From Candidatus Bathyarchaeia archaeon (GTDB lineage Archaea; Thermoproteota; Bathyarchaeia; Bathyarchaeales; Bathyarchaeaceae), in the NCBI GenBank assembly GCA_046760805.1, contig JBHIEV010000002.1:1-58677 (forward strand): 58,677 nucleotides of DNA, read 5' to 3'. A model generated the notes under the pieces. That model worked only from the letters and a program-made list of their open reading frames with translations. It did no database searches and was not told the origin of the DNA. The position numbers and the translations under genes were made by a program. Shown piece by piece: positions 13,236 to 53,207 of the stretch (positions within the stretch are counted from its first letter, which is position 1; the number at the start of each line of letters is the position of its first letter).

Positions 13236-13832
13236 TTATTTCAGGGCTTCCAATACCAACCTGATCCCTAAAAGGACAATCCATATCAAGACTGCAAGTG
13301 AACTGATGGTCTCTGGAATCGCCACGCCTTCCCACGGGAAAACCCATACAACACCCGCGACAAACCCCATCAAGGTTATCAAAGCTCCAATCTTTCCAGA
13401 GTGCTTTCGTATCATGGAGACTCCAACGAGAAACGAAGACAGGGAGATCAATGCGAAAAAGGCTACTGAGAAATATAGGTGCAAGTTTCCATAGTCCCCT
13501 GTAAATATGCCTATCGCACATAGACTTATTGCGGCCAGAGCGAGGATTAATGCGCCCATGTTGCCAAAGAGATGTTTCGATAACACCTTTTGAAGACCCA
13601 CTGCGAAAACTAGGATGAGAATTCCGCTTGTTATGAGACACAGATTGAAAAGTGTGGCGGAGGTTTTGTGAACTCCAAGATCGCTCAAGGTGTTCTTGGT
13701 CCAACTGAACCATGGAGAAAGTGTGATTGCTAAAAGTGTGCACGTAATGGCTATTATTGGACCTACGATGCCGCATATTCCAGCTATCCTAAGCCATGTT
13801 AGTCTGTTGCTTTGCGTGATTTCGCTGACCAT
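13236..13832 (-). CDS. DUF998-family integral membrane protein
   Basis: It is a six-TM hydrophobic protein with the DUF998-like N-terminal pattern (IAGICGIVGPIIAI...NTLSDLG...LFNLCLITSGILILVFA). Confidence 0.55.
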   Translation of the reverse strand: MVSEITQSNRLTWLRIAGICGIVGPIIAITCTLLAITLSPWFSWTKNTLSDLGVHKTSATLFNLCLITSGILILVFAVGLQKVLSKHLFGNMGALILALAAISLCAIGIFTGDYGNLHLYFSVAFFALISLSSFLVGVSMIRKHSGKIGALITLMGFVAGVVWVFPWEGVAIPETISSLAVLIWIVLLGIRLVLEALK

Positions 13833-13969
13833 TCTCCCATCACGTTCCCCATTCTACCCTCTTTTCTCCTGTCTTCCCTGCTCAGTACGTAATATTATTG
13901 GAAGTTTTTAAGATACTGACTTGAATTATAAGATATAGGCCTAGAAAGATATTTTCACATGGGATTTCC

Positions 13970-14758
13970 TTGATCGTTAAAGAAGTCTACGCAAAAACTA
14001 TCCTTTCCAAATCCCGAGTCTTAGATTATACGATTAATCCTTACATTGGTTGCGAACATGGTTGCACTTATTGTTATGCACGATTTATGAAAAGGTATAC
14101 TGATCACAAGGAAGAGTGGGGCAGATTTGTTGATGTGAAGATAAATGCACCAACTCTGCTGCAACATGAAATAGAGAGGAAACGAGTTGGCAGAGTTTGG
14201 ATAAGTGGGGTGTGCGATCCTTATCAACCGCTTGAGAAGGAATATGAAGTCACGAGGAGATGCCTCGAAATTCTGTCAAGGCGAAATTGGCCCGTTGTAA
14301 TCCAGACGAAATCCCCTCTTGTCTTACGTGATATGGACATACTAAGAGAAATTGAAGACATTGAGATCGGGCTTACAATTACCACAGCTGACGAGAATAT
14401 TAGAAAACTCTTTGAACCTCATTCTCCATCCATTAAAGAAAGGGTTGAGACATTAGATAGACTTCATTCTGCTGGTTTCAAAACCTTCGCGATGATAGCT
14501 CCAATGCTTCCAAAAGCTGAATGTTTAGTGCCACTACTTAGCGGAAGAGTGGATGATGTCTTGATTGACAGAATGAACTATCATTATGCTGATTGGGTGT
14601 ATAGGAAGTATGGGTTAGAATATGCTATGACCGGTAAATTCTTCGCACAGAAGAAACTGGAGCTTGCTAGGATGCTTGAAGAGAAGAGGATGCCTTATCA
14701 ATTCTGTTTTGACCGGTGCGGCCATCAGAGCTTTTCGAAGTGGAAAACATTTTGCTAA
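13970..14758 (+). CDS. Radical SAM protein (COG1533 / SplB-like group)
   Basis: The CxxxCxxC cluster motif is in INPYIGCEHGCTYCYARFM. The size and layout resemble SplB-like radical SAM proteins. TTG start. Confidence 0.7.
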   Translation: MIVKEVYAKTILSKSRVLDYTINPYIGCEHGCTYCYARFMKRYTDHKEEWGRFVDVKINAPTLLQHEIERKRVGRVWISGVCDPYQPLEKEYEVTRRCLEILSRRNWPVVIQTKSPLVLRDMDILREIEDIEIGLTITTADENIRKLFEPHSPSIKERVETLDRLHSAGFKTFAMIAPMLPKAECLVPLLSGRVDDVLIDRMNYHYADWVYRKYGLEYAMTGKFFAQKKLELARMLEEKRMPYQFCFDRCGHQSFSKWKTFC

Positions 14759-36349: not shown

Positions 36350-38776
36350 CTAAGAACCTCCCATCAATTGCAGTGAACCTAACTTTTCCAATCTCTCAGT
36401 CATCATGTGCGCGGCCTCCGCAAACTTGTCTCCTTCAATAAACACCATGTTGAACATCTCCAACCTCTCTGGCTCTATACCATACTCCCCAAGCAGCCTT
36501 CTGGCAAGTTTCACCTTCTTTTCAGTCTTTTGGCTACCCACCTCATAATGGCAGCCATCGTTCTTGCATCCCACAACCATCACTCCTTGAGCACCTGCCT
36601 TGAAGGCTTCTAGAAACTGGTGAACCTGCAGGATACCCGTGCAAGGAACCTTCATAACCCTCACATTGGCTGGATACTGCATCATACCCATACCCGAAGA
36701 ATCCACTGCAGTGCCCCCACATTCCGAACAGCATATGGCTAAGACCAAAGGTTTCGACGTTCCGTTTACAGACATAAGTGCCTTCATCTGAGCCAACATC
36801 TGATCTGGTCTAGAATGCCTAAGCTCTATAGCGTTGAGGGGGCATGCTCCTACGCAGATACCACACCCCTCACACACGAGATCCGCCACCCGAGCCACAA
36901 AGTGTTCTTCACTAGTTGGCACCAGACTTATCGCGCCGAAAGGACAGGTAACTGGGCAGAACTGGCAGTCACCACAATACTCCTCGTTGATTACGGCGGT
37001 TCTCTGATCTTTAATTATCTTGCCGTTCATCATGAACTTGGCGGCCTTCAAAGCTGCCGAATGCGCGTGCAGGGAAGTTGTAGGCGCATCCTTCGGAAAT
37101 GTTGCTCCTCCGCAGATGTATAGCCCTCTCAACGTGGTTTCAGTCGGTCTCAGTTTAGCGTTGTACTCTTTGAAGAAGCCATCCCCATTCAACAAAGGCT
37201 CAAGACCAATCTGGGCTAGTTCTTTGGTGCCTTCGGATGGTACCATGGCGGGAGCCAACACTACTAGGTCAGCGTCTAGTTCTAGGAATCTTCTTAAAAG
37301 AGCGTCTTCTACATCGACGATCAACCTATTTGTCTTTGGGTCCCGTGAGATTTCGGTTGGTCTGCCCTTGACAAATTTGATCCCCATCTCCCTCGCCCGT
37401 TCATAGTAATCTTCGTGCTGCCTTCCAGTGGTTCTTATGTCTATGTAGCAGATCGTAATGTCAGTATCTGGGTAGGCAGATTTGATCAACATAGCATGTT
37501 TTAGCGAGATCATGCAGCAGATGCTCGAGCAGTAGGGATTGTAGCGCCTATCTCGGGAACCGACACACTGTATGAAAACGATTTTCTGGGCGGGCTTCCG
37601 GTCAGAAGGTCTAATAATAACGCCGCCTGTGGGACCAAAACCGTCAATCATCCTGGCAAGCTCAAGATTGGTCACGACATCCGGGTAATCGCCATAGTGA
37701 TACTCCTTTATTATACTTGAATCGAACTCCTGGAAACCCGTGGCAACTATTATGGTGCCAACGTTGAGTGTTATCCGCTCACTTTTCTGGTCTAATTCGA
37801 TAGCGTTCGTAGGACAAACTTCAGCGCATTTGGCACAATCGTGGAATTTGCAGACGCTTTCGTCGATTACGTAGACGGGTGGGTGGACATTCGGGATGTT
37901 CATGTAGACGGCTTTGCGGGTTTTCAACTTTGCGTTATATTCGTCTGGAACTTCTACGGGGCAAACAGTAGTGCACAAGTCACATGCAACACATTTCATT
38001 TCGTTGACGTATCTTGGCTTCTTCTCTATCGTGACCTCGTAGTTTCCAGGACCTCCCTTTTCCAATTTCAAGACTTTTGAATTGGTCAATATGTTCAGTT
38101 TGGGAATCTCGCTGAAACCGGAACGATATACGCACTTTCGGGAAGTGTGGGTGATGGTTTTCACATCTGAAGCCGGAGACTGTATACAGGTGGCACAATC
38201 ATCCGTTGGGAAGAAACGCCCCGCACGGGCAGCCAATCCACCGAGAAACGGTTCTTTTTCAACCAAGTGCAATTCGAATCCTAAATCTGCCAAATCTACT
38301 GCCGCCTGCATACCGGCTATGCCTCCGCCTATAACCAAGGCAGATTTGAGGACTGGAAACTCTAGTTTCTCTATGGGTTCGAGAAGTTTGGCACGTTCAA
38401 TTGCAGCGAGAAGCATGGCCTTGGCCTTTTCTGTGGCTTCCTCAGGTGTTTTCCGATGAGGCACCGCGCAGTGGTCTTTAAGGTCGATGACTTCCACCAG
38501 ATAGGGATTGAGACCAGCGTTTTCAACCGCTTGAACGATGTTAACCTCGCTAAGCTTCGGGAGACACTCCGCAACGACGACTCTGTTTATCTTTCCATCT
38601 TTGATAGCATCAACAATGAGTTGTAATCCTTTGCCACGCCAAAACTCACTACTTTTACCGACGAGAACCACACCTGGAACTTTCTTCACATAATCAGCTA
38701 GCGCGTTGAGGTTCAAAATTTCAGAGAGTTGTTTCCCGCAGTTAGACAGGAATACGCCGACCTTGACTTTGTTCAT
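36350..38776 (-). CDS. hdrA: Heterodisulfide reductase subunit A fused C-terminally to an MvhD (FlpD) domain
   Basis: The FAD motif is VIGGGIAGMQAA, with several CxxCxxCxxxCP ferredoxin motifs. The C-terminal roughly 140 aa (ICCSECGG...VPCTG...VMVVGCKNDGCHY) match the MvhD [2Fe-2S] domain pattern. Confidence 0.9.
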   Translation of the reverse strand: MNKVKVGVFLSNCGKQLSEILNLNALADYVKKVPGVVLVGKSSEFWRGKGLQLIVDAIKDGKINRVVVAECLPKLSEVNIVQAVENAGLNPYLVEVIDLKDHCAVPHRKTPEEATEKAKAMLLAAIERAKLLEPIEKLEFPVLKSALVIGGGIAGMQAAVDLADLGFELHLVEKEPFLGGLAARAGRFFPTDDCATCIQSPASDVKTITHTSRKCVYRSGFSEIPKLNILTNSKVLKLEKGGPGNYEVTIEKKPRYVNEMKCVACDLCTTVCPVEVPDEYNAKLKTRKAVYMNIPNVHPPVYVIDESVCKFHDCAKCAEVCPTNAIELDQKSERITLNVGTIIVATGFQEFDSSIIKEYHYGDYPDVVTNLELARMIDGFGPTGGVIIRPSDRKPAQKIVFIQCVGSRDRRYNPYCSSICCMISLKHAMLIKSAYPDTDITICYIDIRTTGRQHEDYYERAREMGIKFVKGRPTEISRDPKTNRLIVDVEDALLRRFLELDADLVVLAPAMVPSEGTKELAQIGLEPLLNGDGFFKEYNAKLRPTETTLRGLYICGGATFPKDAPTTSLHAHSAALKAAKFMMNGKIIKDQRTAVINEEYCGDCQFCPVTCPFGAISLVPTSEEHFVARVADLVCEGCGICVGACPLNAIELRHSRPDQMLAQMKALMSVNGTSKPLVLAICCSECGGTAVDSSGMGMMQYPANVRVMKVPCTGILQVHQFLEAFKAGAQGVMVVGCKNDGCHYEVGSQKTEKKVKLARRLLGEYGIEPERLEMFNMVFIEGDKFAEAAHMMTERLEKLGSLQLMGGS

Positions 38777-38786
38777 TACTAATCCC

Positions 38787-40241
38787 TCACCTTCTTATCG
38801 TCTTCAACAACCGCTTTTCGCTATCGTAAATCTTCACTTCCAAGGGCATTTCACCGATGGCGAAGTGGGTCGCACAGGCAAAGCATGGGTCGTAGGCTCT
38901 GAAGGCCATCTCCACCATGTTCAGCAGCCCGTCGCTAACCTTGCCATTGTGGATGAGTCCTTTTGCAACGTTTCTTACGGACATGCAAATGCTCGGTGCG
39001 TTGTTAACTGTAGCGACTATCAGGTTGACTTTCTTGGCTAAGGCTTTTTCATCTAGTATGTAATGGTGAATCAGAGTTCCTCTAGCAGCCTCAACTATTC
39101 CGACTCCTTCCCCAGGCTTTCCAGGTTTGTTTCTGATATCCTTCTTTGTTATTCCTTTGTCTGTAACCAGTTCCAAGGCCCTTTCAGCCGCGTACATAAG
39201 TTCTATTAGGCGAGCCCAGTGAAAAGCCAACGTGGCGTGAACGGGTTTTCCACCGAGAGTTTTGTACATCCTTGCGTATTCTTCTTGGGCCATGGGTGTT
39301 GCCATGCCTTCTGCGGCGTTCAATCTTCCAAGGGTGCCAACTCGGTAGATGCCACTGTCGGTCCCTGCGACTAAACCTTTCCATCCAACCTTTTTGAGGT
39401 AGGGTAGTTTGACGTAGGTCCATGGTTCAACGTGTTCCTCGATAACGTCCAAGTATTCTGAGGGAGCAAATTTCACAAACTCCTTCCCTTCTGGATCAAC
39501 CACCCTGACATCGCCGTCGTAGAAGTTTACTTTGTTGTTCTTATCAACGGTTCCCATGTAATAGGTTTCTAAGGTGTAAGGCTCGCTCTTGATCACGTTT
39601 ACATAGTCAACGTTTTTGAGAACCACATCATCGAAGATTTTCAGAGAGAACTTTGCGAATTCGACGGCGCTTCTAACCATCTTCTCAATCTCTTTCCTCT
39701 CCTCTTCAGACAGAGCCTTTGCCATTCCGCCCGGCAAAGCGCTCACGGGATGAGTTGCCTTTCCTCCGAGTATTGCTGTTATTTTCTGTCCATAGGCTCT
39801 ATGTTTTATCACTTCTTTGGCGATATCTAAGCCGACTTTCTCTATCACTCCAAGAATGTTTCGTTTCGCTGGTGGAGCGTCTGGTCCTACAACGAAGTCT
39901 GGGGCTGCTAAGAAGTAGAAATTCAATATGTGATCGTAGATATAATAGCCACAATACTCCAGCTCTCTCAGTTTCTTGGCGGTTTCCGTAGGTTCCACAT
40001 TGAACGCTGCGTCGCACGCTTTTGCACCTGCCATGTGGTGGGCAACTGGGCAGACTCCGCAGATTCTGGTGGTTATTATAGGTAGGTCTTCAGCTCTTCT
40101 TCCCTCGCAGAAACGCTCGAATCCTCTCAGTTCTGGGACTTGGAAGTAGGCGTTTTCCACGTTTCCCTCATCGTTGAGAAATATTGTTATTTTTCCGTGG
40201 CCTTCCAGTCTCGTGATTGGATCTATGACTATTTCTTTCAT
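38787..40241 (-). CDS. mvhA: [NiFe]-hydrogenase large subunit, Mvh (group 3c, F420-non-reducing) type
   Basis: It has the N-terminal RLEGHG and RICGVCPVAHH motifs and the C-terminal DPCFACATH followed by a 25-aa extension. Confidence 0.9.
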   Translation of the reverse strand: MKEIVIDPITRLEGHGKITIFLNDEGNVENAYFQVPELRGFERFCEGRRAEDLPIITTRICGVCPVAHHMAGAKACDAAFNVEPTETAKKLRELEYCGYYIYDHILNFYFLAAPDFVVGPDAPPAKRNILGVIEKVGLDIAKEVIKHRAYGQKITAILGGKATHPVSALPGGMAKALSEEERKEIEKMVRSAVEFAKFSLKIFDDVVLKNVDYVNVIKSEPYTLETYYMGTVDKNNKVNFYDGDVRVVDPEGKEFVKFAPSEYLDVIEEHVEPWTYVKLPYLKKVGWKGLVAGTDSGIYRVGTLGRLNAAEGMATPMAQEEYARMYKTLGGKPVHATLAFHWARLIELMYAAERALELVTDKGITKKDIRNKPGKPGEGVGIVEAARGTLIHHYILDEKALAKKVNLIVATVNNAPSICMSVRNVAKGLIHNGKVSDGLLNMVEMAFRAYDPCFACATHFAIGEMPLEVKIYDSEKRLLKTIRR

Positions 40242-43435: not shown

Positions 43436-44482
43436 TTGAAAAAGATTACCATGGCTCACGGCGCTGGCGGAACCGTGATGAAGGAACTTGTTGAGAGGTA
43501 CGTGCTGAAGCATCTTGGAGGGGGTAATGCTGAAGTTCCGCTGGATGCTCTTGACGACTCTGCTGTGATCAGCGACATTGTCTTGCATTCCGACTCCCAC
43601 GCTGTGAGACCTCAGTTCTTTCCTGGAGGCGATATCGGTAGACTGGCGGTTGCGGGAACCGTCAACGACATAGCGGTGATGGGGGCTGAGCCTGTTGCAC
43701 TTTCATCCGCCTTGATATTGGAGGAGGGCCTTCCGATGGCTGATCTGGACAAGATTTTGGAGAGCATCGCTGAGACGTGTAAAGAGGCTGAGGTGCTCGT
43801 AATCACGGGCGACACGAAGGTTGTTGAGAAGGGGGCTTTGGGAGGATGCGTCATAAACACCTCTGGAATAGGAAGGCGAAACGCTGCTTTGGAGAAGAAC
43901 ATCGCCGAGGTGAGGAGGCACCGCTCTTTCAACGCAAGGTGGGTTCTCGACTCCAACCTGAGGGAGGGAGACAGAATAATCATCTCTGGCACGGTTGGAG
44001 ACCACGGACTAGCTGTATTGTCGGCTCAGGAAGGCTACAACTTTGGGAGTCAGGTGATGTCCGACGTGACTCCGCTAAACAAGCTCATCATGCACTTGTT
44101 GAATATTGGTGGAATTGTGGCTATGAAGGACCCGACACGAGGAGGCTTATCGAACGCACTGAACGAGTTCAGTGAGAAGTCAGGGGTTGGGATTCTGGTG
44201 GAGGAAGAGAAGATACCGATACGCGGTGATGTTAGGGCGGCTTGCGAGATGCTTGGCATCGACCCGCTGGACGTGGGAAACGAAGGCAAAGTGTTGATAG
44301 GGGTCGTGCCTCAGAAGGCTGAGGAAGTCTTGGATGTGCTGAAGGAGACCAAGGAGGGCAGAGACGCAGAGTTGATAGGGACTGCAACAAAAGAGTTCAA
44401 CGAGGTTGCCCTTGAGACAGTTGTGGGTGGGAAGAGAATCCTGGCACCTCCAATAGGAGACCCCGTTCCCAGAATATGCTAG
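43436..44482 (+). CDS. hypE: Hydrogenase maturation protein HypE
   Basis: It has the N-terminal ITMAHGAGG, an AIR-synthase-like fold, and the diagnostic C-terminal PRIC. The TTG start lies 9 nt after GGAGGAG. Confidence 0.93.
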   Translation: MKKITMAHGAGGTVMKELVERYVLKHLGGGNAEVPLDALDDSAVISDIVLHSDSHAVRPQFFPGGDIGRLAVAGTVNDIAVMGAEPVALSSALILEEGLPMADLDKILESIAETCKEAEVLVITGDTKVVEKGALGGCVINTSGIGRRNAALEKNIAEVRRHRSFNARWVLDSNLREGDRIIISGTVGDHGLAVLSAQEGYNFGSQVMSDVTPLNKLIMHLLNIGGIVAMKDPTRGGLSNALNEFSEKSGVGILVEEEKIPIRGDVRAACEMLGIDPLDVGNEGKVLIGVVPQKAEEVLDVLKETKEGRDAELIGTATKEFNEVALETVVGGKRILAPPIGDPVPRIC

Positions 44483-44488: not shown

Positions 44489-45583
44489 TTAATGAATAAC
44501 TGAGTGTTTTGCCCAGATTCTACATGTACCTTCTATGGAGACCATGCATGCGCCTTTTGGAGCAGAAGGTTTGCAAGCCTTCATAAAGAGGGGGCACTCG
44601 GGAGGGTTTATCTTTCCAATCATAACCAGATGGCAAAGGCAGCCGGGCAACAAGTCTCTGGAACGCTCTATGTGCACATCATACTTTTCTCTAGCATTAT
44701 AAGGCGTGAACTCTTCCCTCAGCGCCAGAGCCGACGAAGGGATTCTTCCAAGTCCTCTCCAGCGTCCACTCACTACCTTGAACACCTTCTGGATGGCTGC
44801 TTGAGCTTTGACGTTTCCTTCCCACGCCACCGAGCGCTTATACTCGTTCTCTAGCCTAGCCTCTCCGTCTCTCAGCTGCCTCAGAAGCATAGAAATCGCA
44901 AAAAGAATATCTAAGGGTTCGAAGCCCGCCACCACAGTTGGCATGTGATAGGCGTCGGGAAACGTCTGATAAGGCTTCATCCCGATTATCGTTGAGACGT
45001 GACCGGGCGCGATGAAGCCGTCTATGTGTAGGTCTCCGACGCCGAGGAGCAGCTCCATGGCTGGTGGTATCAACCTGTGACATACAAGAAAGCTGAGGTT
45101 TTCGGGAGGCTTGTTTAAAATTTCGACTGCAGTAGCTGGTGCTGTGGTTTCAAACCCTATGGCGAGAAAGACAAAATCCTTGCAAGGCTCTTTCTCCGCC
45201 ATTCTCACGGCGTCCTTGACGCTGTAAACAACCCTAACATCCCCGCCCGAAGCCTTCGCCTCCTGAAGCGAACTCTCTGAAGCGGGGACACGGATCACGT
45301 CACCATAAGTCACAACGGTCACGCCTTCGAGAGCCAAAGCGATAGCCTCATCAAGTTCAACGGCTGGAAGAATACAGACGGGACAGCCAGGTCCAGCAAT
45401 CACTTTTACTGTTTTGGGAAGGAGAGATCGCAGTCCGTAGTGGGTTATGGTCCACTCATGAGTACCGCACACGTGGCAGAACTTCACTTCATAAGGAGGA
45501 GCCAGCTTCTCAATCTGAGCCGCAATCTTCTTTGTCAATGCTGGGTCTCTAAATCTCACTTGCTCCTTCATCAGCGTTGACAA
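44489..45583 (-). CDS. hypD: Hydrogenase maturation protein HypD
   Basis: Motifs FRDP, CHVCGTHEW, GPGCPVC and FETT are present. The start is TTG 45583 or ATG 45571. Confidence 0.93.
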   Translation of the reverse strand: MSTLMKEQVRFRDPALTKKIAAQIEKLAPPYEVKFCHVCGTHEWTITHYGLRSLLPKTVKVIAGPGCPVCILPAVELDEAIALALEGVTVVTYGDVIRVPASESSLQEAKASGGDVRVVYSVKDAVRMAEKEPCKDFVFLAIGFETTAPATAVEILNKPPENLSFLVCHRLIPPAMELLLGVGDLHIDGFIAPGHVSTIIGMKPYQTFPDAYHMPTVVAGFEPLDILFAISMLLRQLRDGEARLENEYKRSVAWEGNVKAQAAIQKVFKVVSGRWRGLGRIPSSALALREEFTPYNAREKYDVHIERSRDLLPGCLCHLVMIGKINPPECPLFMKACKPSAPKGACMVSIEGTCRIWAKHSVIH

Positions 45584-45585: not shown

Positions 45586-45960
45586 CTATTCCAAAATCAA
45601 TTTAATGCTCTTTATCAGGCATTCTCTTCCGCCGACAATATCAACTGTGCCACCGCATTTGGGGCATTTAAGCGTTGGAACTGGGACATGATACATGGGA
45701 TCGTCTTCATAGTTGAAGTTTCCCTCGTAACCGCAACTGCTACACTTTACAACGCCATCCTTCGCCTCTATTAAGAGCCTCGAGTTCTTCATTATAGTAC
45801 CCTCAGTGAGAACCTTGTATGAGAACCTAACTTGTTCCAGACCGAGAAACGTGAGCTTTCCGATGACAAGACAGACTTCTGCGACACCCTTTGCGTTGTG
45901 CTTTCTCGCTTCATGAAGAACGTTTTCAACGATTTGAGAGGTCATTGAGAACTCGTGCAA
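45586..45960 (-). CDS. hypA: Hydrogenase nickel-insertion protein HypA
   Basis: It has the N-terminal MHEFS Ni site and the zinc site CSSCG...CPKCG. TTG start. Confidence 0.9.
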   Translation of the reverse strand: MHEFSMTSQIVENVLHEARKHNAKGVAEVCLVIGKLTFLGLEQVRFSYKVLTEGTIMKNSRLLIEAKDGVVKCSSCGYEGNFNYEDDPMYHVPVPTLKCPKCGGTVDIVGGRECLIKSIKLILE

Positions 45961-45985: not shown

Positions 45986-46681
45986 TTAAAGTCCAAGCGC
46001 CTCGATAACTGTCCCTACGCCCTCTCCACTTCTACAGTTCGTTACAGCAACCTTCGCCTTCGGATTCACCCTCTTAACATCCCCCTCCAACCTCTTCACG
46101 TCAACCCCCATAGCATCAGCCAAGTCCATCTTGTTTATCACCACCACATCAGCATCCATGAAGATAAACGGATGCTTAATGACCATGTAGGGACCCTCCG
46201 TAACGCTCACCACCACCACACGCTGATCAGAGCCCAAAGGAAACTCGGCTGGGCAGATGAGGTTGCCAACATTTTCAATGAACAGCAAATCAATATTTTT
46301 CAGGTCGATTCTCCGAAGCGCCTTTCCAACAAGATTAGCATCCAGATGACATTCCTTCCCAGTGGTTATCGGAACAGCCTCAGCACCATGCCTCTCAATC
46401 CGCCCCGCGTCTATAGTAGTCGTCAGATCCCCCTTCAATGCGGCTATCCTATACTTCCCAATCAAGGATTGAACCAGCTTCTCTATGAGAGAGGTCTTCC
46501 CTGACCCAGTTGCACCCATAACTTCTATCGCTTTCACACCATACTTCCGCAGAAACTCTTTGTTCTTCTCCGCAAGTGTTCGATTCAACTCAAGAATGTC
46601 AGCCTCAAGCTCCACATCAAAGACCTCCCCTTCCTCAGCCTTGACAACCTCCTTCAACCGCGCCACCCCAATTTCATTCAT
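45986..46681 (-). CDS. hypB: Hydrogenase nickel-incorporation GTPase HypB
   Basis: It has the P-loop GATGSGKTS, the ENVGNLICP metal-binding motif and NKMDL. Confidence 0.92.
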   Translation of the reverse strand: MNEIGVARLKEVVKAEEGEVFDVELEADILELNRTLAEKNKEFLRKYGVKAIEVMGATGSGKTSLIEKLVQSLIGKYRIAALKGDLTTTIDAGRIERHGAEAVPITTGKECHLDANLVGKALRRIDLKNIDLLFIENVGNLICPAEFPLGSDQRVVVVSVTEGPYMVIKHPFIFMDADVVVINKMDLADAMGVDVKRLEGDVKRVNPKAKVAVTNCRSGEGVGTVIEALGL

Positions 46682-46892
46682 ATTTGAGAAGTTCCTCCCA
46701 CATCTTCAGAGTCTCTTCTGCCGCCTTCCTATCAATCACCTGAATCGCATACCCAGCATGGACCAAAACATACTCTCCAACCTTAGCATCCACAAGCATA
46801 ACATTCACCTCACGAAGAACCCCTTCGCCAAAGTCAACCTTGGCGGTGTCTCCTCTAATCTCCACCACTTCTGCTGGAATCGCGAGGCACAT
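46674..46892 (-). CDS. hypC: Hydrogenase assembly chaperone HypC
   Basis: The obligatory N-terminal MCLAIPA is present. I set the start at ATG 46892 so that Cys is residue 2. The gene overlaps hypB by 8 nt. Confidence 0.9.
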   Translation of the reverse strand: MCLAIPAEVVEIRGDTAKVDFGEGVLREVNVMLVDAKVGEYVLVHAGYAIQVIDRKAAEETLKMWEELLKYE

Positions 46893-46995
46893 CTCAATCA
46901 CCTATAGCGAAACGCTCCAAAATAAATTCATTTCGAATACAAAGCGCTCACATGAAACTACTCATCATGACCATAGCTTCACACGCATCGATTTT

Positions 46996-49263
46996 CTAAG
47001 CTTGAAAACTCGTAGCAATAGTCTGCCCAAAAGAGATGCCCCCATCCCCCGGTGGTACCTGACGATGAATCAAGAATTCAAAGCCGCTTTTCTCAACTGC
47101 TCTTCTGACTGTGTGTGTGATGTACTCATTGTACGCAACCCCACCAGAAAATCCTACAGTCTTGACCCCAATCCGTCCAGCCTCCTCAACAGCCCGCTGA
47201 GCCAACGATCTGGCAAGATACGACTGAGCAGAGCAGGCAAGGTCAGGAACCGAATACTCGTCTATCTTGGTAAAGATTTCACGAACCATACGTGTAGTTT
47301 CAATTCTAGCACCTTCAAATATAGGAGACAAGTTCAAAACATCAACTCCCGCTGTGGCAGCGGACTCCAATTTCATAGCAGGTTCACCCTCATAGGTTCG
47401 TTCATAACATAATCCGAGTATCGCAGAGACGGCATCCAAGACCCTCCCACAACTTGTGGTCTTCACAGCCAAACCTTTCCTCAGTTGTTTAAGAACTATC
47501 TCGGCTTCTCTCTCTCCGTGTGGAAAGCGATCACTTCGGGAAATCAGCCAGTCCTCCACATCTGCCACACCGTGGAGTATTCCCGTTGCCATTCGTAAGG
47601 GATACAGCGTAGCCAAGTCCCCTCCAACCATCGGCTGCTCCTGAAGATGCGTAAGGCGCTGAAAACCCTCCTGATTACAGTAGAGTATCTCTCCACCCCA
47701 CGCATTGCCATCCGAGCCGTAGCCAAATCCATCGCAGGCTATACCCACCATCTCTTCAACATCGTGCTCGCCCATAAGAGACGCAATGTGAGCATAGTGG
47801 TGCTGAACTGGAAAAACAGGACATTCAAACTCATTCGCTAGGCGCTGAGCCAGCTTTGTTGCTGCAAACTTCGGATGCAAATCACAGGCTATCATCTCAA
47901 CCTTGCTGTTCGTTAATCTGGTCAGGTGACTTATGGTCTCTTTTAAGAAGTTGAGAGTTTCCAGATTCTCGACATCCCCAATATGCTGTGAAATAAAGGC
48001 CTTGTCCCTCGAAAGCACACATGCAGTCACATTTAGCTCCGCGCCAACCCCTAAGACACAACTCTTCGCCGACATCTTTAAGTGAATAGGCTCGGGCGCA
48101 TACCCCCTAGACCGGCGAACTATGCTGTGGTTATCGCCGTGTAGGCGGACAACAGAGTCGTCGCATCTCTGAGCTATTCTTCTATTATGAAGGAGGAAAA
48201 AGTCAACAGTACCCCCAAGCCTCTTAATGGCTTCTTGATTCTCCGTAACGATCGGCTCGTTTGGAGGGTTGGCGCTAGTCATCACAAACGCGGGCTCGTT
48301 GACCTTGTCAAAAAGCATGTGGTGCAGTCCTGTGTATGGCAGCATAACGCCAATGTTGTGCAGGCCTGGCGAGATCAGTTCTGAAAGATAACAGTCATCC
48401 CGCTTCCTCAACAGCAGAATAGGTTTGATGTAAGATGCCAGTAGCTTAGCCTCTTCAACGCTCAGCTGAGCAAACGACCTCACGGTTTCGATGTCACGAG
48501 CCATTATGGCAAACGGCTTCTGGGCTCTGTGCTTAACCTTTCGCAATCTAGCGATAGGCTCGGACTGAGTTGTCGCAGTTGCCACGTGGAAGCCTCCATT
48601 TCCCTTGATTGCAACTATGTATCCCTCCTCGAGGAGCCTCCCCGCCTCCTCTATCGGGTTTTCACTCTTTACATGTTGACCGTTGTTGGTGGTGAGGTAG
48701 GCTCTCGGACCACACTTACTACACGCCACGGTCTGGGCGTGAAACCTGCGGTTTGATGGAGTCTTGTACTCTCTGCTGCAGAACTCGCACATGCTGAAAT
48801 CCCGCATTGTAGTGTTCGGTCTGTCGTATGGAAGCCTTTGGATTGTGGTGTATCTGGGACCGCAGTTAGTGCACGTGATGAAAAAGTAGTTATGACGCTG
48901 ATTCTTAGGATCACGAAGCTCGCTTAGGCATTCATCACAGATCGAGACGTCTGGCGGGATCACTGATCCTGAGAGTTCCACTCTTTTGGAACTTCCCAGA
49001 ATCGTGAACTTTTCAAACTTGCCACTGTCCTCTGCATAATTCGTGGTTATTTCATAGATTCGGGCGAGGGGAGGCTTATCCTCTTTCAACTCCGCAAGAA
49101 AGTTGTTAACATCGCTCTCTTTTCCCTCAACAACTACCTCCACCGCGGCATCTCCTCTGTTTCGCACGTAGCCGACCAGCTCGTTCTTCACAGCGATTCT
49201 GTAGATGAAGGGGCGAAAACCGACGCCTTGGACAATGCCACTGACCTTAATTTCAGCACGCAA
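46996..49263 (-). CDS. hypF: Carbamoyltransferase HypF
   Basis: The domain order is acylphosphatase (GIVQGVGFRPF), two CxxC-x18-CxxC zinc fingers, a YrdC-like domain and a Kae1-like domain. TTG start. Confidence 0.93.
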   Translation of the reverse strand: MRAEIKVSGIVQGVGFRPFIYRIAVKNELVGYVRNRGDAAVEVVVEGKESDVNNFLAELKEDKPPLARIYEITTNYAEDSGKFEKFTILGSSKRVELSGSVIPPDVSICDECLSELRDPKNQRHNYFFITCTNCGPRYTTIQRLPYDRPNTTMRDFSMCEFCSREYKTPSNRRFHAQTVACSKCGPRAYLTTNNGQHVKSENPIEEAGRLLEEGYIVAIKGNGGFHVATATTQSEPIARLRKVKHRAQKPFAIMARDIETVRSFAQLSVEEAKLLASYIKPILLLRKRDDCYLSELISPGLHNIGVMLPYTGLHHMLFDKVNEPAFVMTSANPPNEPIVTENQEAIKRLGGTVDFFLLHNRRIAQRCDDSVVRLHGDNHSIVRRSRGYAPEPIHLKMSAKSCVLGVGAELNVTACVLSRDKAFISQHIGDVENLETLNFLKETISHLTRLTNSKVEMIACDLHPKFAATKLAQRLANEFECPVFPVQHHYAHIASLMGEHDVEEMVGIACDGFGYGSDGNAWGGEILYCNQEGFQRLTHLQEQPMVGGDLATLYPLRMATGILHGVADVEDWLISRSDRFPHGEREAEIVLKQLRKGLAVKTTSCGRVLDAVSAILGLCYERTYEGEPAMKLESAATAGVDVLNLSPIFEGARIETTRMVREIFTKIDEYSVPDLACSAQSYLARSLAQRAVEEAGRIGVKTVGFSGGVAYNEYITHTVRRAVEKSGFEFLIHRQVPPGDGGISFGQTIATSFQA

Positions 49264-49324
49264 AGTTTGTTAAGCTCCCTCTTGGAGTACTTCGAGCCTA
49301 CGTGTTTCCTAAATCTTTCGCCTG

Positions 49325-49357
49325 TATGACCTACGTCATATTCCCATTTATGTCATA
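49325..49357. promoter_or_regulatory. TATGAC-N4-GTCATA palindrome plus a third GTCATA half-site, just upstream of a TATA-like box (TATTATATAAAAG, 49365-49377)
   Basis: The arms are at 49325-49330 and 49335-49340, with TGTCATA at 49351-49357. The element lies in the divergent hypF / group-4 hydrogenase intergenic region. Confidence 0.3.
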
Positions 49358-49520
49358 CCTCAACTATTATATAAAAGCACACGCGAAAGCTGAAGTCAAA
49401 GTGACGAGAACATGAGGGAAGACCCACTCCACAATATTTCAGCACCTGTTCCAACAATGTCGCCGGTCACAGCAAGTTGTCTTCCAGCAGATCACCCCCC
49501 AATTATGGCGGCAGAACAAT

Positions 49521-49943
49521 ATGGGACTGTTTAAGTGGAGCCGAGCAAAATCACCATGGATCCTTCACTTCAACACCGGCGGCTGCAACGGATGCACAAT
49601 CGAGATTGTAGCCGCCTTAACACCCAAATTTGACATTGAAAGGTTTGGGATAATCCAGCGCGGCAGCCCTCGACACGCAGACATACTCGCTATCACAGGC
49701 CCGGTGACAAGGCAAGTTAAGGACAGACTGGTCAGAATATATGAACAGATGCTTGAACCCAAGTTCGTCGTCGGTGTTGGCGCCTGTCCACTCAGCGGAG
49801 GGGTCTTCCGAGGTTCCTACAACGTTCACGAGGGATTAGACACCATCCTTCCAGTAGACGTGTACATTCCAGGATGCCCACCGAAGCCTGAAGCCATAAT
49901 TGACGGCCTCGTGAAGCTCCTATCGAAGCTGAGGACTAGTTGA
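49521..49943 (+). CDS. Group-4 [NiFe]-hydrogenase small subunit (NuoB / EchC / MbhJ-like)
   Basis: The four cluster cysteines lie in GGCNGC, GACP and PGCPP. It is 140 aa. Confidence 0.88.
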   Translation: MGLFKWSRAKSPWILHFNTGGCNGCTIEIVAALTPKFDIERFGIIQRGSPRHADILAITGPVTRQVKDRLVRIYEQMLEPKFVVGVGACPLSGGVFRGSYNVHEGLDTILPVDVYIPGCPPKPEAIIDGLVKLLSKLRTS

Positions 49944-49945
49944 AT

Positions 49946-50440
49946 ATGACCACAGAAATCGCAGAAGAGACAAGAATCGTTAGAAAAATGAAAGATGCAA
50001 TTGGAGAAGACATTCTAGAGGTCAGAATCCCTCGTCCTCACCGGATTTTTGTTCACGTCAACAAAGACGCGTTCAAAAAAGTCATTCGGTACCTAACCCA
50101 AAAAGCGAATTTCACCCACATCTCAACCATTACAGGCGTTGACTTAGGAGAGGAGATTGAAGCCATCTACCATCTAAGCCATGATGGAAGAATAGAAGTC
50201 TCGCTTAAAGTTCGAGTACCAAAAGATGACCCAGCCCTCCCAACAGTCACTGACATCAATCCTGGTGCAATACTTTACGAACGGGAGGTTCACGATCTCT
50301 TGGGAATAACATTCGAGGAACATCCAGACCTTTCGCCTCTCGTGTTGCCTGAGGGATGGCCCAGAGACGTTTATCCACTGAGAAAGGAATGGACAATCGA
50401 AAAGCTTGAGAAGAAAATCGCGAAAAGGAGGAGACAGTGA
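49946..50440 (+). CDS. NuoC / EchD / MbhK-like subunit
   Basis: The NuoC-like block ERE(V)HDLLGI(T)F..HPD is present. The gene overlaps its neighbours (operon coupling). Confidence 0.8.
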   Translation: MTTEIAEETRIVRKMKDAIGEDILEVRIPRPHRIFVHVNKDAFKKVIRYLTQKANFTHISTITGVDLGEEIEAIYHLSHDGRIEVSLKVRVPKDDPALPTVTDINPGAILYEREVHDLLGITFEEHPDLSPLVLPEGWPRDVYPLRKEWTIEKLEKKIAKRRRQ

Positions 50441-51636
50441 TATCATATCCAACCATCCGCATTCCAGTGGGACCACAACATCCAGCTCTCAAGGAACCGG
50501 AATATTTCATGTTCGAGGTTGAGGGTGAACACGTTGTCAATGTTAAGCCACGGATCGGTTACATCCATCGTGGAATCGAGAAAGCCGCAGAGAGCCGAAC
50601 CTTCATCCAAGACCTGTATCTAATCGAGCGAATATGTGGATTATGCTCACACTCCCACACAACCTGCTACACACAAGTAATTGAAGAAATCCTAGGCGTA
50701 GAGATACCACCTAGAGCTAGGTACATTAGGACCATCATCGCCGAGCTTGAAAGAATCCACAGCCACGCCCTCTGGATCGGATTAGCTGCCCACGAGATCG
50801 GTTTCGACACACTTTTCATGTATGTGTGGCGAGATCGCGAGATGGTCATGAACCTTCTAGAGCTGGTTTCAGGTAAGCGCGTACATCACGCTATGAACAC
50901 GATAGGAGGAGTGGAAAGAGACATAGCACCAGAAACAGCAAAAAAAATGCAAGAGGGGCTAAACTCCTTTCAAGAGCGAATGAAGTACTACAAGAAAATT
51001 GGAAGTACTGAACAAACCATTTTGAAAAGAACTGCGCAAATCGGAATTTTAAGACCCGAAGATGCCTCAGCCCTCTGTGCCGTCGGCCCGACTTTACGAG
51101 CCAGCGGAATCAAGCATGATGTGAGAGCAGATGATCCGTATGCCGCTTATAGTGAGATTCCATTCGAAGTTATAACCTATGATGGGTGCGACGTCCTAAG
51201 CCGTCTGCTCATCAGATTCGACGAAATCCTTGAAAGCATAAACATAATCCTCTACGCCCTGGAACACCTTCCTGAAGGAGAAGTCAAAGTCAAAGTCCCA
51301 AGGAGAGTACCCGAAGGAGAAGCCGTTGGCCGTGTTGAGGCGCCCAGAGGAGAACTCATCCACTACGCAAAGACAAACGGAACCACAAAACCAGAGCGCT
51401 ACAAGATAAGAACTCCGACTCTGGGGAACCTACCATCTGTCTGCAAGATGCTTGTTGGCGGTTACATTGCAGATATACCAATCGTCTTAGCGGGAATAGA
51501 TCCATGCTTCGCCTGCATGGATCGGATGGCTTTTGTAGACGAAAGCAAGGACAAACGATGGGTCTGGACTGGTGAAGAGTTAAGAAAGTATGCAATAGAA
51601 TGGTATCAGAAGGAACATCCATTTAGTTCACTTTGA
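50437..51636 (+). CDS. Group-4 [NiFe]-hydrogenase large subunit (NuoD / EchE / MbhL-like) with intact Ni-Fe ligands
   Basis: It has GPQHPA and IGYIHRGIEK, the N-terminal ligand motif RICGLCSHSH and the C-terminal DPCFACMDR followed by a 36-aa extension. Confidence 0.9.
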   Translation: MISYPTIRIPVGPQHPALKEPEYFMFEVEGEHVVNVKPRIGYIHRGIEKAAESRTFIQDLYLIERICGLCSHSHTTCYTQVIEEILGVEIPPRARYIRTIIAELERIHSHALWIGLAAHEIGFDTLFMYVWRDREMVMNLLELVSGKRVHHAMNTIGGVERDIAPETAKKMQEGLNSFQERMKYYKKIGSTEQTILKRTAQIGILRPEDASALCAVGPTLRASGIKHDVRADDPYAAYSEIPFEVITYDGCDVLSRLLIRFDEILESINIILYALEHLPEGEVKVKVPRRVPEGEAVGRVEAPRGELIHYAKTNGTTKPERYKIRTPTLGNLPSVCKMLVGGYIADIPIVLAGIDPCFACMDRMAFVDESKDKRWVWTGEELRKYAIEWYQKEHPFSSL

Positions 51637-51649
51637 GTGGTGACGAAAG

Positions 51650-52027
51650 TTGGCGATGGTCAGAGAGCTCCTAAAGCACGTATTCAAGAAGCCCGCCACT
51701 CTTAGATACCCGTCTGAGAAGAAGAAACCGATCAAGGGCATGCGAGGAAGACCCGTCTGGGACATAGAGCGTTGCGTCGGATGCGAACTCTGCTTTAGAG
51801 ATTGCCCTTCTGGAGCCATTGAGATGATTGGAAAGGGTTCTCAGGCTGAATTCAAACACTATCTCGATCGATGCATATTCTGCGGATGGTGCGCTGAAGT
51901 TTGTCCTACTGACGCAATCACGATGACGGAAGAGTACGAGTTAGCCGGTTTCGATCGGGCCGAGATGATCATAGAGTTTAAGAGAGCACGAGATGAAGAA
52001 TCTAGTCAGTCAAACGAAAACGAGTGA
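51650..52027 (+). CDS. NuoI / EchF / MbhN-like 2x[4Fe-4S] ferredoxin subunit
   Basis: Motifs CVGCELCFRDCP and CIFCGWCAEVCP are present. Confidence 0.85.
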   Translation: MAMVRELLKHVFKKPATLRYPSEKKKPIKGMRGRPVWDIERCVGCELCFRDCPSGAIEMIGKGSQAEFKHYLDRCIFCGWCAEVCPTDAITMTEEYELAGFDRAEMIIEFKRARDEESSQSNENE

Positions 52028-52055: not shown

Positions 52056-52792
52056 CTATAGGTCGCCACAAATTGGGCACTTAGCGTTCCTCTTCATCTC
52101 CACCATCTCGAAGACCATCTCTTTCCCATTCAGAAATAGCATTCTTCCAACGAGGGGCTCTCCTATCCCTGTAACAAGCTTGATAGCCTCCATAACCTGC
52201 AACGATGCAAACAAGGCTGGAGTAGCACCCAACACTGGGAACCTTTCAACTTCAGGGGGTCTTTCGGAAATATGCATCGTAGGCAAGGCCCTCTGCCAGG
52301 TAATAAAGCAGTCATTTGTCCATGTAACGCTGAGATGCCAGCATGAACAAATGGCGTGACTTTTGTTACGCAATACTCATTAATGAAAAATCTCGTTCTC
52401 CAGTTGTCCATCCCATCCACAACTACGTCTGCACCTTTAAAGAGGCCTTCCACGCTATCCTTGCTGATCTTGGCGATTATGGCTTCCACTTCAATTTCAG
52501 GGTTTAATGCCTCAAGCTTCTCCTTAGCGACTTCAGCCTTAGACCGTCCGATATCTCTCTGCCAACAAAGAATCTGACGATTTAGGTCACTTAGCTGGAA
52601 TTTCTCCTCGTCTATGAGGATGACTTTTCCGATTCCAGCCGCTGCGAGGTAGAGTGATGATGGGCATCCTAACCCACCGAGACCAGCTACCGCAACTTTG
52701 GAAGCCTTCGGCTTTTTCTGTCCCTCTAATCCCAGACCAGGAATCAGCATCTGTCGGTTGTAGCGCTCCAACTCTGAAAGCGATAGCCTCAT
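52056..52792 (-). pseudogene. ThiF/MoeB/UbaA-type E1-like adenylyltransferase interrupted by a 1-nt frameshift at a homopolymer
   Basis: The N-terminal part lies in the frame of ORF 52163..52978 (start ATG 52792: MRLSLSELERYNRQ, GLGGLG, CLRC). The C-terminal part lies in the frame of ORF 52056..52373 (PPEVERFPVLGATP...CPIC). The frames meet at the G5 run at 52255-52259. Confidence 0.75.
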
Positions 52793-52871
52793 CTGAGAAC
52801 CCTCAAGGCTAAGTCTACGTCTGCATAAATAATAGTTTTCAGTTATAGTGAGGGAAGATGTTTGAAACAAT

Positions 52872-53207
52872 ATGTGGTGTTTGATCGTGCATTTGGTGGT
52901 TCTCGTTACAACATCAAGTGTGAAAGAGGCGGAGCAGATAGCGCAAGAACTACTCAAAAAGCGATTAGCAGCATGCATAAATACTATACCAACCGTTCAA
53001 TCGAGATTTTGGTGGAAAGGAAGGATTGAGCGGTGCGACGAAGCTTTGATGATTATCAAGTCGAGAAGTGAGCTGTTTGATGAACTGGCCGAATCGGTTA
53101 GAGCCATCCACTCATATCAAGTTCCCGAGATAATTGGTGTTCCAGTTCAGCAAGGTTTAACCGAATATCTCGACTGGATCGACAAGGCCACACATAAGTC
53201 GTCATAA
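52872..53207 (+). CDS. cutA: CutA1 divalent-cation tolerance family protein
   Basis: Motifs VVLVTTSSVKEAEQIAQELLKKRLAACIN, SRFWWKG and SYQVPEII are present. Confidence 0.85.
   Translation: MWCLIVHLVVLVTTSSVKEAEQIAQELLKKRLAACINTIPTVQSRFWWKGRIERCDEALMIIKSRSELFDELAESVRAIHSYQVPEIIGVPVQQGLTEYLDWIDKATHKSS

Follow-up and report, generated by a model that had tools for sequence, protein, structure and literature searches.

Models of how complex I evolved and is assembled invoke a peripheral arm and a membrane arm as modules. In 2021, Loh, Herve and Brune reported Hfo, a Fpo-like 11-subunit [NiFe] hydrogenase of Bathyarchaeia that belongs to HydDB subgroup 4g (PMC7886697). Hfo-like clusters also occur in Ca. 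Methanomethylicus and Pyrodictium delaneyi, and this type of enzyme still awaits biochemical characterisation (PMC7886697). The same paper gives C[GS][ILV]C[AGNS]xxH and [DE][PL]Cx[AGST]Cx[DE][RL] as the patterns of the [NiFe] ligand motifs L1 and L2, respectively.

In this study, we analysed a bathyarchaeal contig of 58,677 nucleotides (58.7 kb; the whole of this stretch is called the window) together with the remainder of its genome (G000), a 149-contig metagenome-assembled genome that is 96% complete. The products of four genes in the window, hfoB, hfoC, hfoD, and hfoI, very probably make up the cytoplasm-facing, peripheral catalytic arm of a single 11-subunit [NiFe] hydrogenase that is membrane-bound and complex-I-like. 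This enzyme would be of the Hfo type (group 4g), with its membrane arm encoded elsewhere in the genome. Gene content, motif integrity, orthology, co-variation, and purifying selection all point to this reading. The assignment to Hfo is made by comparing the predicted subunits with the architecture described by Loh et al. (PMC7886697).

Results

Genes of the catalytic arm

The ORF check of the window detected four ORFs exactly at the positions given for them earlier, 49521-52027. A first-pass annotation had described them as four tightly packed NuoB-, NuoC-, NuoD-, and NuoI-like genes with intact Ni-Fe ligand motifs in the echCDEF order; coordinates, Pfam/NCBIfam matches, and motifs agree with this description, and B-C-D-I corresponds to echC-D-E-F. 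The product of hfoB (49521..49943, plus strand) is a NuoB-like small subunit of 140 amino acids (Pfam PF01058 Oxidored_q6, 108.6 bits; NCBIfam NuoB, 171 bits) and the only NuoB homologue in the genome. It has the hydrogenase-type GCNGC motif and four cysteines (22, 25, 89, and 119) for a single, proximal [4Fe-4S] cluster. The hfoC gene (49940..50440, plus strand), the single NuoC gene of the genome, starts with TTG in a 4-nt overlap with the hfoB stop codon and encodes a NuoC-like protein of 166 amino acids (Pfam PF00329 Complex1_30kDa, 112 bits). A TTG start was also found for hfoL of the relative L005.

The hfoD gene (50437..51636, plus strand), which overlaps hfoC by 4 nt, encodes a NuoD-like [NiFe] large subunit of 399 amino acids (PF00346 Complex1_49kDa, 236 bits; PF00374 NiFeSe_Hases, 57 bits); the genome has no second group-4 large subunit. 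Its L1 motif, RICGLCSHSH (50629..50658, plus strand; residues 65-74), contains CGLCSHSH, which fits the published pattern, and its L2 motif, DPCFACMDR (51499..51525, plus strand; residues 355-363), likewise fits. L2 is followed by a C-terminal extension of 36 amino acids (51526..51633, plus strand) that matches the C-terminal tail of E. coli HycE in the alignment. Among solved structures, HfoD scored best with HycE (7Z0S, 307 bits) and MbhL (6CFW, 298 bits), followed by Nqo4 (225), and the scores with groups 1-3-type subunits were far lower (FrhA, 74 bits; MvhA, 53 bits). The top-scoring NCBIfam models for HfoD were NuoD and FpoD, every one of them under its cut-off, and the named matches to the HfoD family were hydrogenase large subunits of Bathyarchaeota/Thermoproteota.

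The gap between hfoD and hfoI was measured as 13 nt, the value annotated earlier, and a ribosome-binding site, GGTGA, lies inside this spacer. The hfoI gene (51650..52027, plus strand) encodes a NuoI/HycF-like protein of 125 amino acids with two [4Fe-4S] clusters, identified by its Pfam/NCBIfam family match and containing the motifs CVGCELCFRDCP and CIFCGWCAEVCP.

Flanking and maturation genes

A complete set of hyp genes adjoins the cluster. The hypF gene (46996..49263, minus strand; NCBIfam TIGR00143, 870 bits), encoding the carbamoyltransferase for the CN ligands, is divergent from hfoB, and hypC (46674-46901), hypB (45986-46681), hypA (45586-45960), and hypD (44489-45583), all on the minus strand, and hypE (43436-44482, plus strand) were each identified by Pfam/NCBIfam family matches. 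The hypF/hfoBCDI arrangement recurs in L008, L009, L010, and G003. With regard to the neighbours, the divergent hypF had been annotated correctly, and the gene 3' of hfoI is indeed ThiF/E1-like and convergent, though it is broken by a frameshift.

The divergent intergenic region between hypF and hfoB (49264..49520) contains the palindrome TATGACCTACGTCATA (49325-49340) and the TATA-like sequence TTATATAAAA (49367-49376). The core of this region is kept in the four split-lineage loci with sequence reaching there, namely the window, G003, L008, and L009, with G in place of T in L009. Furthermore, a HycI homologue is encoded on contig C84 (4324-4875; Pfam PF01750, 57 bits), and it is 80% identical to the HycI adjoining the cluster in the relative L008. 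Judging from these homologies, a HycI-type endopeptidase presumably cuts off the 36-residue tail of HfoD once Ni has been inserted.

Genes of the membrane arm

We found no NuoH-like or antiporter-like gene on the 58.7-kb window contig. A genome-wide search for orphan NuoH/NuoL genes located such genes on two other contigs, C6 and C18, only. The remaining complex-I core genes were present in exactly one copy each, including one NuoH and three antiporter-like genes. Single copies of hfoA and hfoH lie at C6:25342-26675, hfoJ1-J2-K-N at C18:15574-17985, and hfoL-M at C18:11839-15553; Pfam confirms A, H, J, K, N, L, and M. Thus, the claim that the module is encoded without any membrane subunit holds for the operon and the contig and fails for the genome, and the suggestion that the membrane partners are encoded elsewhere was borne out. 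All eleven Hfo subunit types (A, B, C, D, H, I, J, K, L, M, and N) are present in this genome, as four gene units over three contigs.

The J subunit is encoded by two ORFs, J1 with PF00499 and J2, which has no Pfam match yet is kept in all relatives. HfoL is of the NuoL type with a long C-terminal extension, and it scored higher with Nqo12/NuoL (168 bits) than with MbhH (98 bits). This distal subunit is devoid of two canonical lysines, and the number of ions pumped per reaction may therefore not be the same as in complex I. The ORFs flanking the membrane loci included no Mrp E/F/G-like genes, and a weak MbhD-domain match inside the NuoJ1 ORF was the sole Mrp-related signal. From the NuoEFG and FpoFO input modules, the search covered NuoF (PF01512), which was absent from the genome, and the FrhB/FpoF family.

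Five paralogues of the FrhB/FpoF family were found in the genome, none linked to any hfo locus. A FrhB-CBS flavoprotein was considered as a twelfth subunit and rejected for this genome: its gene comes after a second, collinear class of cluster in L016 and L017, and the present genome has only the unlinked paralogues, which are 26-32% identical to that FrhB-CBS. This second class (class II), A-B-CD-H-I-J-K-L-M-N plus FrhB-CBS, coexists in the order, and its D is 53-56% identical.

Comparison with relatives

In L005, L007, G017, and G008, the HfoD proteins of which are 72-78% identical, the eleven genes are in one locus arranged as LM / JKN / ABCDHI. The membrane subunits of the present genome showed 52-80% identity with those of L005 and L007, and B, C, D, and I showed 54-76%. 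On these alignments, we regard the C6 and C18 genes as orthologous to the membrane genes co-located with the hydrogenase genes in relatives. Over 12 relatives, the identities of HfoD and HfoH were closely correlated (Pearson r = 0.96, Spearman rho = 0.98). Between G000 and G003, both of which are split, dN/dS was 0.06-0.15 for 10 of the 11 subunits (11 of the 12 ORFs), values that are rough since dS was about 1-1.6, near saturation; J2 was saturated in this comparison. Such values indicate purifying selection on the hfo genes between the two split genomes. Furthermore, HfoB and HfoD of the split lineage are collinear with those of the unsplit loci, with zero indels and few changes specific to the lineage; the GPQHPALKEPE loop at the N-terminus is conserved between them.

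History of the split

The split was observed in six independent assemblies (G000, G003, G001, L008, L009, and L010). In the tree, the six split loci grouped together in a single clade (UFBoot 94, SH-aLRT 92), with unsplit loci branching around it. Therefore, the split reflects a single relocation of B-C-D-I beside hypF and not a misassembly. In G003, A-H, J1-J2-K-N, and M-L are together in one locus from which the B, C, D, and I genes are gone. For a spread over three contigs in a metagenome-assembled genome, binning errors are conceivable; the same gene set was found independently in G003. An ancestor of the genus very probably had the eleven genes in one locus, LM / JKN / ABCDHI, from which the B, C, D, and I genes were then relocated beside the hyp maturation genes; their removal joined nuoA and nuoH as a pair.

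HfoD and HfoI are present in G001, another genome of this genus, and membrane subunits were not detected in it. This assembly is 62% complete and consists of 3-5-kb contigs chained by 100-N spacers, with HfoD cut at a gap; therefore, the missing membrane subunits carry little weight, and G001 was rejected as a natural membrane-less case.

Discussion

Proposed function

The cluster and its membrane partners have the features of group 4: the L1 and L2 motifs, a NuoB-like subunit with four cysteines, a NuoH-like anchor, and antiporter-like subunits. It is likely, by analogy with characterised relatives, that electron transfer from ferredoxin to H2 is coupled to ion translocation. We infer the physical assembly, the ferredoxin partner, the reaction direction, and the translocated ion by homology to MBH, formate hydrogenlyase (FHL), and complex I. 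In the proposed mechanism, electrons from reduced ferredoxin would enter at the two HfoI [4Fe-4S] clusters, and the HfoB [4Fe-4S] cluster would relay them to the [NiFe] site in HfoD for the reduction of protons to H2; the enzyme may also work in the opposite direction. Ion translocation via HfoH, A, J, and K and the antiporter-like HfoL, M, and N would be driven by the reaction at the D/B/H/A interface. Maturation of HfoD would be carried out by HypABCDEF, whose genes adjoin the cluster.

Alternative explanations

The first-pass annotation had raised the idea of a soluble hydrogenase or undescribed coupling. B-C-D-I could then be a free-standing, ferredoxin-dependent enzyme that departed from the membrane, as the membrane-less operon and window contig, the conserved putative promoter region that the operon has in common with hypF, and the D and I genes of G001 would suggest; we consider this improbable. 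The genome has retained one intact set of the seven cognate membrane genes under purifying selection, and it has no other NuoB or NuoD able to use them. Compared with the membrane-bound orthologues, the interface subunits HfoB and HfoD look unaltered, and G001 is the fragmented, 62%-complete assembly described above. Since the cognate membrane genes were found in separate loci and co-vary with the large subunit, which is the very finding that the annotation had set against its own idea, that idea is not supported.

Docking of B-C-D-I onto another complex, also considered in the first-pass annotation, is still less probable. The partner could be the MvhADG/HdrABC machinery, as the same contig (window 36350-40241) encodes an HdrA-MvhD fusion and has an MvhA-like gene, or a protein of 840 amino acids with 2Fe-2S, NuoG-type Fe-S, and GltD domains (NuoG-N/GltD-like), whose gene ends 238 bp upstream of hfoA in the hfoA-hfoH region of C6. 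However, NuoH co-varies with the module and no alternative partner does. The 840-aa gene is the last one of a benzoyl-CoA-reductase/2-hydroxyacyl-CoA-dehydratase-like operon with a ferredoxin, and in the congeneric G003 an inositol-phosphate synthase gene adjoins hfoA instead. The 840-aa protein was accordingly rejected as a new electron-input subunit.

Very little also speaks for a non-hydrogenase, that is, a Fpo/Nuo-like ferredoxin:acceptor oxidoreductase with a D subunit that merely resembles a hydrogenase; in its favour, NuoD and FpoD were the NCBIfam models with the highest scores, all of them below their cut-offs. HfoD retains the four [NiFe] cysteines in complete L1 and L2 motifs, HycE and MbhL outscore Nqo4, a HycE-like cleavable tail is accompanied by a HycI gene, and the complete hyp set adjoins the cluster. 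HfoB has the hydrogenase-type CxxC and not the tandem CC of complex I, which, together with the [NiFe] cysteines, sets the enzyme apart from complex I and Fpo. There is practically no chance that the missing membrane genes are an assembly or binning artefact at the locus, even in a genome of 149 contigs, because the distance from hfoBCDI to the contig end exceeds 6 kb, base composition is even across the cluster, and the divergent hypF and an I gene directly after D recur in five other independent assemblies (JGI, NCBI, and GTDB genomes).

Energy metabolism and significance

ATP synthase was absent from the 96%-complete genome by two methods, and it was absent from 35 of the 41 relatives (19 of the 21 high-quality ones). 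A membrane H+-pyrophosphatase was found in this genome and in 36 of the 41 relatives. Our search of the literature available to us gave nothing relevant that pairs the loss of ATP synthase with H+-PPase in Bathyarchaeia. Hfo, transferring electrons from ferredoxin to H2, might serve as the main ion pump in a minimal chemiosmotic circuit without ATP synthase, in which the gradient is used by H+-PPase as a PPi synthase and by transporters, and B-C-D-I, under the conserved palindromic putative operator common to hypF, might be made on demand and docked onto a separately expressed membrane arm; taken jointly, these two proposals are speculative and rather unlikely. An order of Bathyarchaeia with a presumed ion-pumping hydrogenase and a membrane pyrophosphatase, and almost never an ATP synthase, may merit more attention than the hfoBCDI finding.

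A group-4 hydrogenase that is soluble would have meant a new type of enzyme, and hfoBCDI is not one; it belongs to a further complex-I-like hydrogenase of the already described Hfo type, whose genes show a lineage-specific rearrangement. Though of modest value, the rearrangement cuts the cluster where the peripheral (hydrogenase) arm meets the membrane arm, and the relocation puts the catalytic arm under a putative divergent promoter region common with maturation genes. It also calls for caution in annotation: "orphan" NuoBCDI modules in fragmented metagenome-assembled genomes need a whole-genome check before they are labelled "soluble".

Comparison with known systems

In cyanobacterial and plastid NDH-1, which is of the complex-I type, the subunit genes are scattered over several loci and one complex is assembled. 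NDH-1 differs from the enzyme here in that it reduces plastoquinone and has no [NiFe] site, yet it is a precedent that a split operon need not mean split function.

The first-pass annotation had called the module Ech/Mbh-like group 4. Group 4 is correct, whereas the membrane part is neither Ech- nor Mbh-like, with the full set of A, H, J, K, L, M, and N. Ech (group 4e) has the same gene order (echC-D-E-F), and ferredoxin dependence is presumed here; however, it has six subunits, of which only EchA and EchB are in the membrane, whereas seven membrane subunit types, three of them antiporter-like, are encoded here. The formate hydrogenlyase of E. coli (group 4a) provides, in HycE, the best solved homologue of HfoD, including the C-terminal extension removed by HycI, a homologue of which is also encoded here. 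It differs in that the class of the present enzyme has neither a formate dehydrogenase partner nor a fused NuoC-NuoD. The membrane arm of formate hydrogenlyase consists of HycC and HycD only, in contrast to the seven subunit types here.

MBH of Pyrococcus furiosus (group 4d, PDB 6CFW), which provides the second-closest solved homologue, MbhL, resembles the present enzyme in the ferredoxin-to-H2 peripheral module of J/K/L/N-type subunits (homologues of NuoB, C, D, and I). In the unsplit relatives, the NuoH-homologue gene between D and I matches the position of mbhM. MBH has one antiporter-like subunit and a Mrp Na+ module (MbhA-G), whereas Hfo here has three antiporter-like subunits and NuoA/J/K, with no Mrp module.

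The closest system is Hfo as published (PMC7886697), with which the present enzyme shares the eleven subunit types, the intact L1 and L2 motifs in D, the absence of a Mrp-type Na+ module and of a NuoF gene, and a bathyarchaeal host with CODH/ACS. The published Hfo is encoded by one Fpo-like cluster, which is absent from this genome, where B-C-D-I lies by hypF, A-H on C6, and J1J2KN and LM on C18; even the unsplit relatives are ordered LM / JKN / ABCDHI and not collinearly from A to N. The one-cluster layout is a feature of gene order and not a property of the enzyme.

The hfoBCDI cluster and its surroundings

Profile matches confirmed the families of the four tightly packed genes at 49521-52027, for which the first-pass annotation gave exact coordinates. 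They encode subunits of a complex-I-like [NiFe] hydrogenase of the Fpo-like 11-subunit type (Hfo): hfoB (49521-49943; NuoB-like, 140 aa; PF01058, 108.6 bits), hfoC (49940-50440; NuoC-like, 166 aa; PF00329, 112 bits), hfoD (50437-51636; NuoD-like, 399 aa; PF00346, 236 bits; its N-terminal part also matches the PF00374 hydrogenase signature), and hfoI (51650-52027; NuoI/HycF-like 2x[4Fe-4S], 125 aa). Overlaps of 4 nt join hfoB to hfoC (TTGA) and hfoC to hfoD (GTGA), and the 13 nt counted between hfoD and hfoI, as annotated, contain a GGTGA ribosome-binding site. The HfoD motifs RICGLCSHSH (aa 65-74) and DPCFACMDR (aa 355-363) match the L1 and L2 [NiFe] patterns quoted by Loh et al. (PMC7886697), in agreement with the intact Ni-Fe ligands noted earlier. 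Furthermore, Cys 22, 25, 89, and 119 of HfoB form the hydrogenase-type CxxC...C...CPP pattern, and HfoI carries the CxxCxxCxxxCP motif twice. The divergent hypF, beyond which lie hypC, hypB, hypA, hypD, and hypE, and the convergent ThiF/E1-like gene downstream of hfoI were both observed, as previously described. Contig C2 and the window are the same stretch; over 6 kb separate the cluster from the contig end, and its composition is even.

The ThiF/E1-like gene (52056-52978, minus strand) consists of two overlapping reading frames, 52163-52978 and 52056-52373, spanning Pfam ThiF positions 1-177 and 171-237, respectively. Alignment with the intact 245-aa orthologue in L008, a locus of a relative, placed a frame change near 52255; the gene is split by a frameshift, which makes it a pseudogene unless the assembly is in error here.

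In the divergent region between hypF and hfoB, positions 49325-49340 form the palindrome TATGACCTACGTCATA, and 49367-49376 a TATA-like box. The conserved core of this region, in which TATA-like boxes come after the palindrome ATGACnTAnGTCAT, is kept in the four loci of this layout that reach the stretch (the window, G003 of the same genus, L008, and L009), with one mismatch in L009. These elements are a candidate operator and promoter, and would be compatible with the joint regulation of hyp and hfoBCDI. Beyond the L2 arginine, HfoD has a tail of 36 residues that could be aligned with the part of E. coli HycE removed by HycI. C84:4324-4875 encodes a HycI homologue (PF01750, 57 bits), which shares 80% identity with the one found near the L008 cluster.

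Membrane subunits encoded on other contigs

The first-pass annotation had proposed either that the membrane partners are encoded elsewhere or that this group-4 hydrogenase has no membrane subunit and may be soluble, its coupling being of an undescribed kind. A Pfam search of the whole genome (G000; 1.56 Mb, 149 contigs, 96% complete) detected no NuoH-like or antiporter-like gene on contig C2. The same search found exactly one NuoH, at C6:25342-26304, and three antiporter-like genes, all on C18. Directly upstream of NuoH lies NuoA (111 aa), with its conserved PYACGE loop. On C18, NuoL (HfoL; 717 aa, 11839-13992) and NuoM (516 aa) are on the plus strand; convergent with them on the minus strand are NuoN (496 aa), NuoK (104 aa when counted from the likely start), and NuoJ as two ORFs, J1 matching PF00499 and J2 matching no Pfam family. 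No second NuoB, NuoC, or group-4 NuoD was detected among all ORFs by phmmer, in which the other [NiFe] large subunits were group-3-like (34-40 bits); NuoF was not found in the genome. All eleven complex-I core subunit types are thus encoded once in G000, in four units on three contigs.

Several other genes were also recorded. A minus-strand operon upstream of hfoA-hfoH (C6:26914-35143) encodes two HGD-D subunits (2-hydroxyacyl-CoA dehydratase / benzoyl-CoA reductase-like), two BcrAD/BadFG ATPases, a ferredoxin, and, last, an 840-aa protein in which a NuoG-type N-terminus (2Fe-2S + 4Fe-4S) is fused to a GltD-like NAD(P)H flavoprotein; the operon may specify an ATP-dependent reductase of aryl- or acyl-CoA together with an NAD(P)H:ferredoxin module of its own. 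In the window, 36350-40241 (minus strand) encodes an 808-aa HdrA-like protein with a fused MvhD/FlpD domain, adjoining a 484-aa MvhA-like, group 3c-like [NiFe] large subunit; a second copy of this pair is on C97. Next to hfoL, G003 (L011:16994-18910) and G006 (C113) have one more antiporter-like gene, the fourth, which is not in G000; its product shares 42% identity with HfoL.

The HfoD family is large and named mainly from Bathyarchaeota and Thermoproteota. All eleven genes occupy a single locus in L005 (a 1.4-Mb JGI contig), L007, G017, and G008 (HfoD 72-78% identical), in the order nuoL-M, then nuoJ1-J2-K-N, then nuoA-B-C-D-H-I. Relative to L005 and L007, the identities of the G000 A, H, J2, K, L, M, and N subunits (52-80%) run parallel to those of B, C, D, and I (54-76%). 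Across 12 relatives, HfoD and HfoH identities to G000 covary (Pearson r 0.96, Spearman rho 0.98), the pairs running from 81/84, 78/81, and 77/82 down to 62/58. Between G000 and G003, both with separated genes, dN/dS was 0.06-0.15 for 10 of 11 subunits, or 11 of 12 ORFs, the exception being the saturated J2. With dS near saturation the values are rough, but the membrane genes clearly show no decay.

HfoD and HfoB of the lineage with separated genes align with their orthologues from single-locus relatives without indels, lineage-wide substitutions at otherwise invariant columns number only four in HfoD and two in HfoB, and the N-terminal GPQHPALKEPE loop of HfoD is unchanged. This is the beta1-beta2 loop, which faces NuoH in complex I. 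Since cognate NuoH/NuoL-like genes in separate loci of the same genome covary with the module, the soluble reading is not supported; the first alternative was right, and the partners of hfoBCDI are encoded elsewhere in the genome.

Recurrence and origin of the split

The divergent arrangement of hypF and B-C-D-I, with I straight after D, recurs in G000, G003, L008, L009, and L010, and G001 shows the same layout as far as its fragments allow. In the HfoD maximum-likelihood tree, the six split loci form one clade (UFBoot 94, SH-aLRT 92) nested among unsplit loci. The rearrangement is real and a single event. In G003 the remaining genes are still together (H-A, an inositol-phosphate synthase gene, J1-J2-K-N, M-L); hence, the event took out B, C, D, and I, which encode the peripheral arm, and joined nuoA to nuoH. 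A further breakpoint in G000 parts A-H (C6) from the other membrane genes (C18). The lineage-specific split follows the line that divides the peripheral arm from the membrane arm.

Direction and energy metabolism

By homology, ferredoxin would reduce HfoI, from which electrons would reach the [NiFe] site of HfoD by way of the HfoB cluster; redox chemistry at the D/B/H/A junction would be coupled to ion translocation via H/A/J/K and L/M/N. CODH/ACS is present in G000. Neither PF01496 nor PF00006 of the A/V-type ATP synthase is present in this genome, which is 96% complete, and the ATP synthase genes of the relative G022 gave no tblastn match in it, although their flanking genes did. A membrane H+-PPase is encoded at C12:6125-8092. 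Within the order, PF00006 occurs in just 6 of 41 genomes (2 of the 21 of high quality) and the H+-PPase in 36 (20 of 21). The reverse direction is possible given the H+-PPase. Because there is no ATPase to energise the membrane, the enzyme seems more likely to run in the direction that evolves H2 and builds a gradient; this corresponds to the alternative scenario of Loh et al. (PMC7886697), who reported ATP synthase to be missing in some bathyarchaeal genomes and mostly attributed this to incompleteness. Its order-wide absence is a more intriguing by-product than the hydrogenase split itself.

Comparison with known systems

Three group-4 classes were found in this order of Bathyarchaeia. Class I is the G000 enzyme, with C and D unfused. 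Class II has the collinear order A-B-CD-H-I-J-K-L-M-N (L016:1-4884; L017:1943-13256; L019:5417-14656), with D 53-56% identical and its [NiFe] motif intact; an FrhB-CBS fusion gene follows in L016 and L017. Class III is a smaller Mbh/Ech-like enzyme, present in G022 (L018) in addition to another group-4 cluster. Neither class II nor class III occurs in G000.

The top solved homologue of HfoD was HycE (307 bits), followed by MbhL (298 bits), with complex-I Nqo4 well behind (225 bits). HfoL, in contrast, scored higher against complex-I Nqo12/NuoL (168 bits), the alignment reaching into the C-terminal extension, than against MbhH (98 bits). Class I HfoL retains the TM5 Glu (GWE) and TM7 Lys (GKAAQ), whereas the H..K of Nqo12 in TM11 is replaced by D..S and its TM12 Lys by T or A, changes kept in all six examined (G000, L005, L007, L011, L013, and L014). 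The two class II L subunits examined have the canonical H..K and H..Q, respectively, in TM11, and both have the TM12 Lys. Given the roles of these residues in complex I, the distal pump half-channel may be altered in class I.

Hfo was described in Bathyarchaeia by Loh, Herve and Brune in 2021 (PMC7886697) as an Fpo-like 11-subunit [NiFe] hydrogenase without biochemical characterisation, placed in subgroup 4g by HydDB, with similar clusters in Ca. Methanomethylicus and Pyrodictium. It combines a hydrogenase catalytic arm with a complex-I-type membrane arm; the same combination is encoded in G000, and the subunit composition fits the published Bathy-6 Hfo, be that class I or class II. Taken together, the G000 enzyme is a further member of the Hfo type already described, its gene cluster having undergone a split specific to the lineage.
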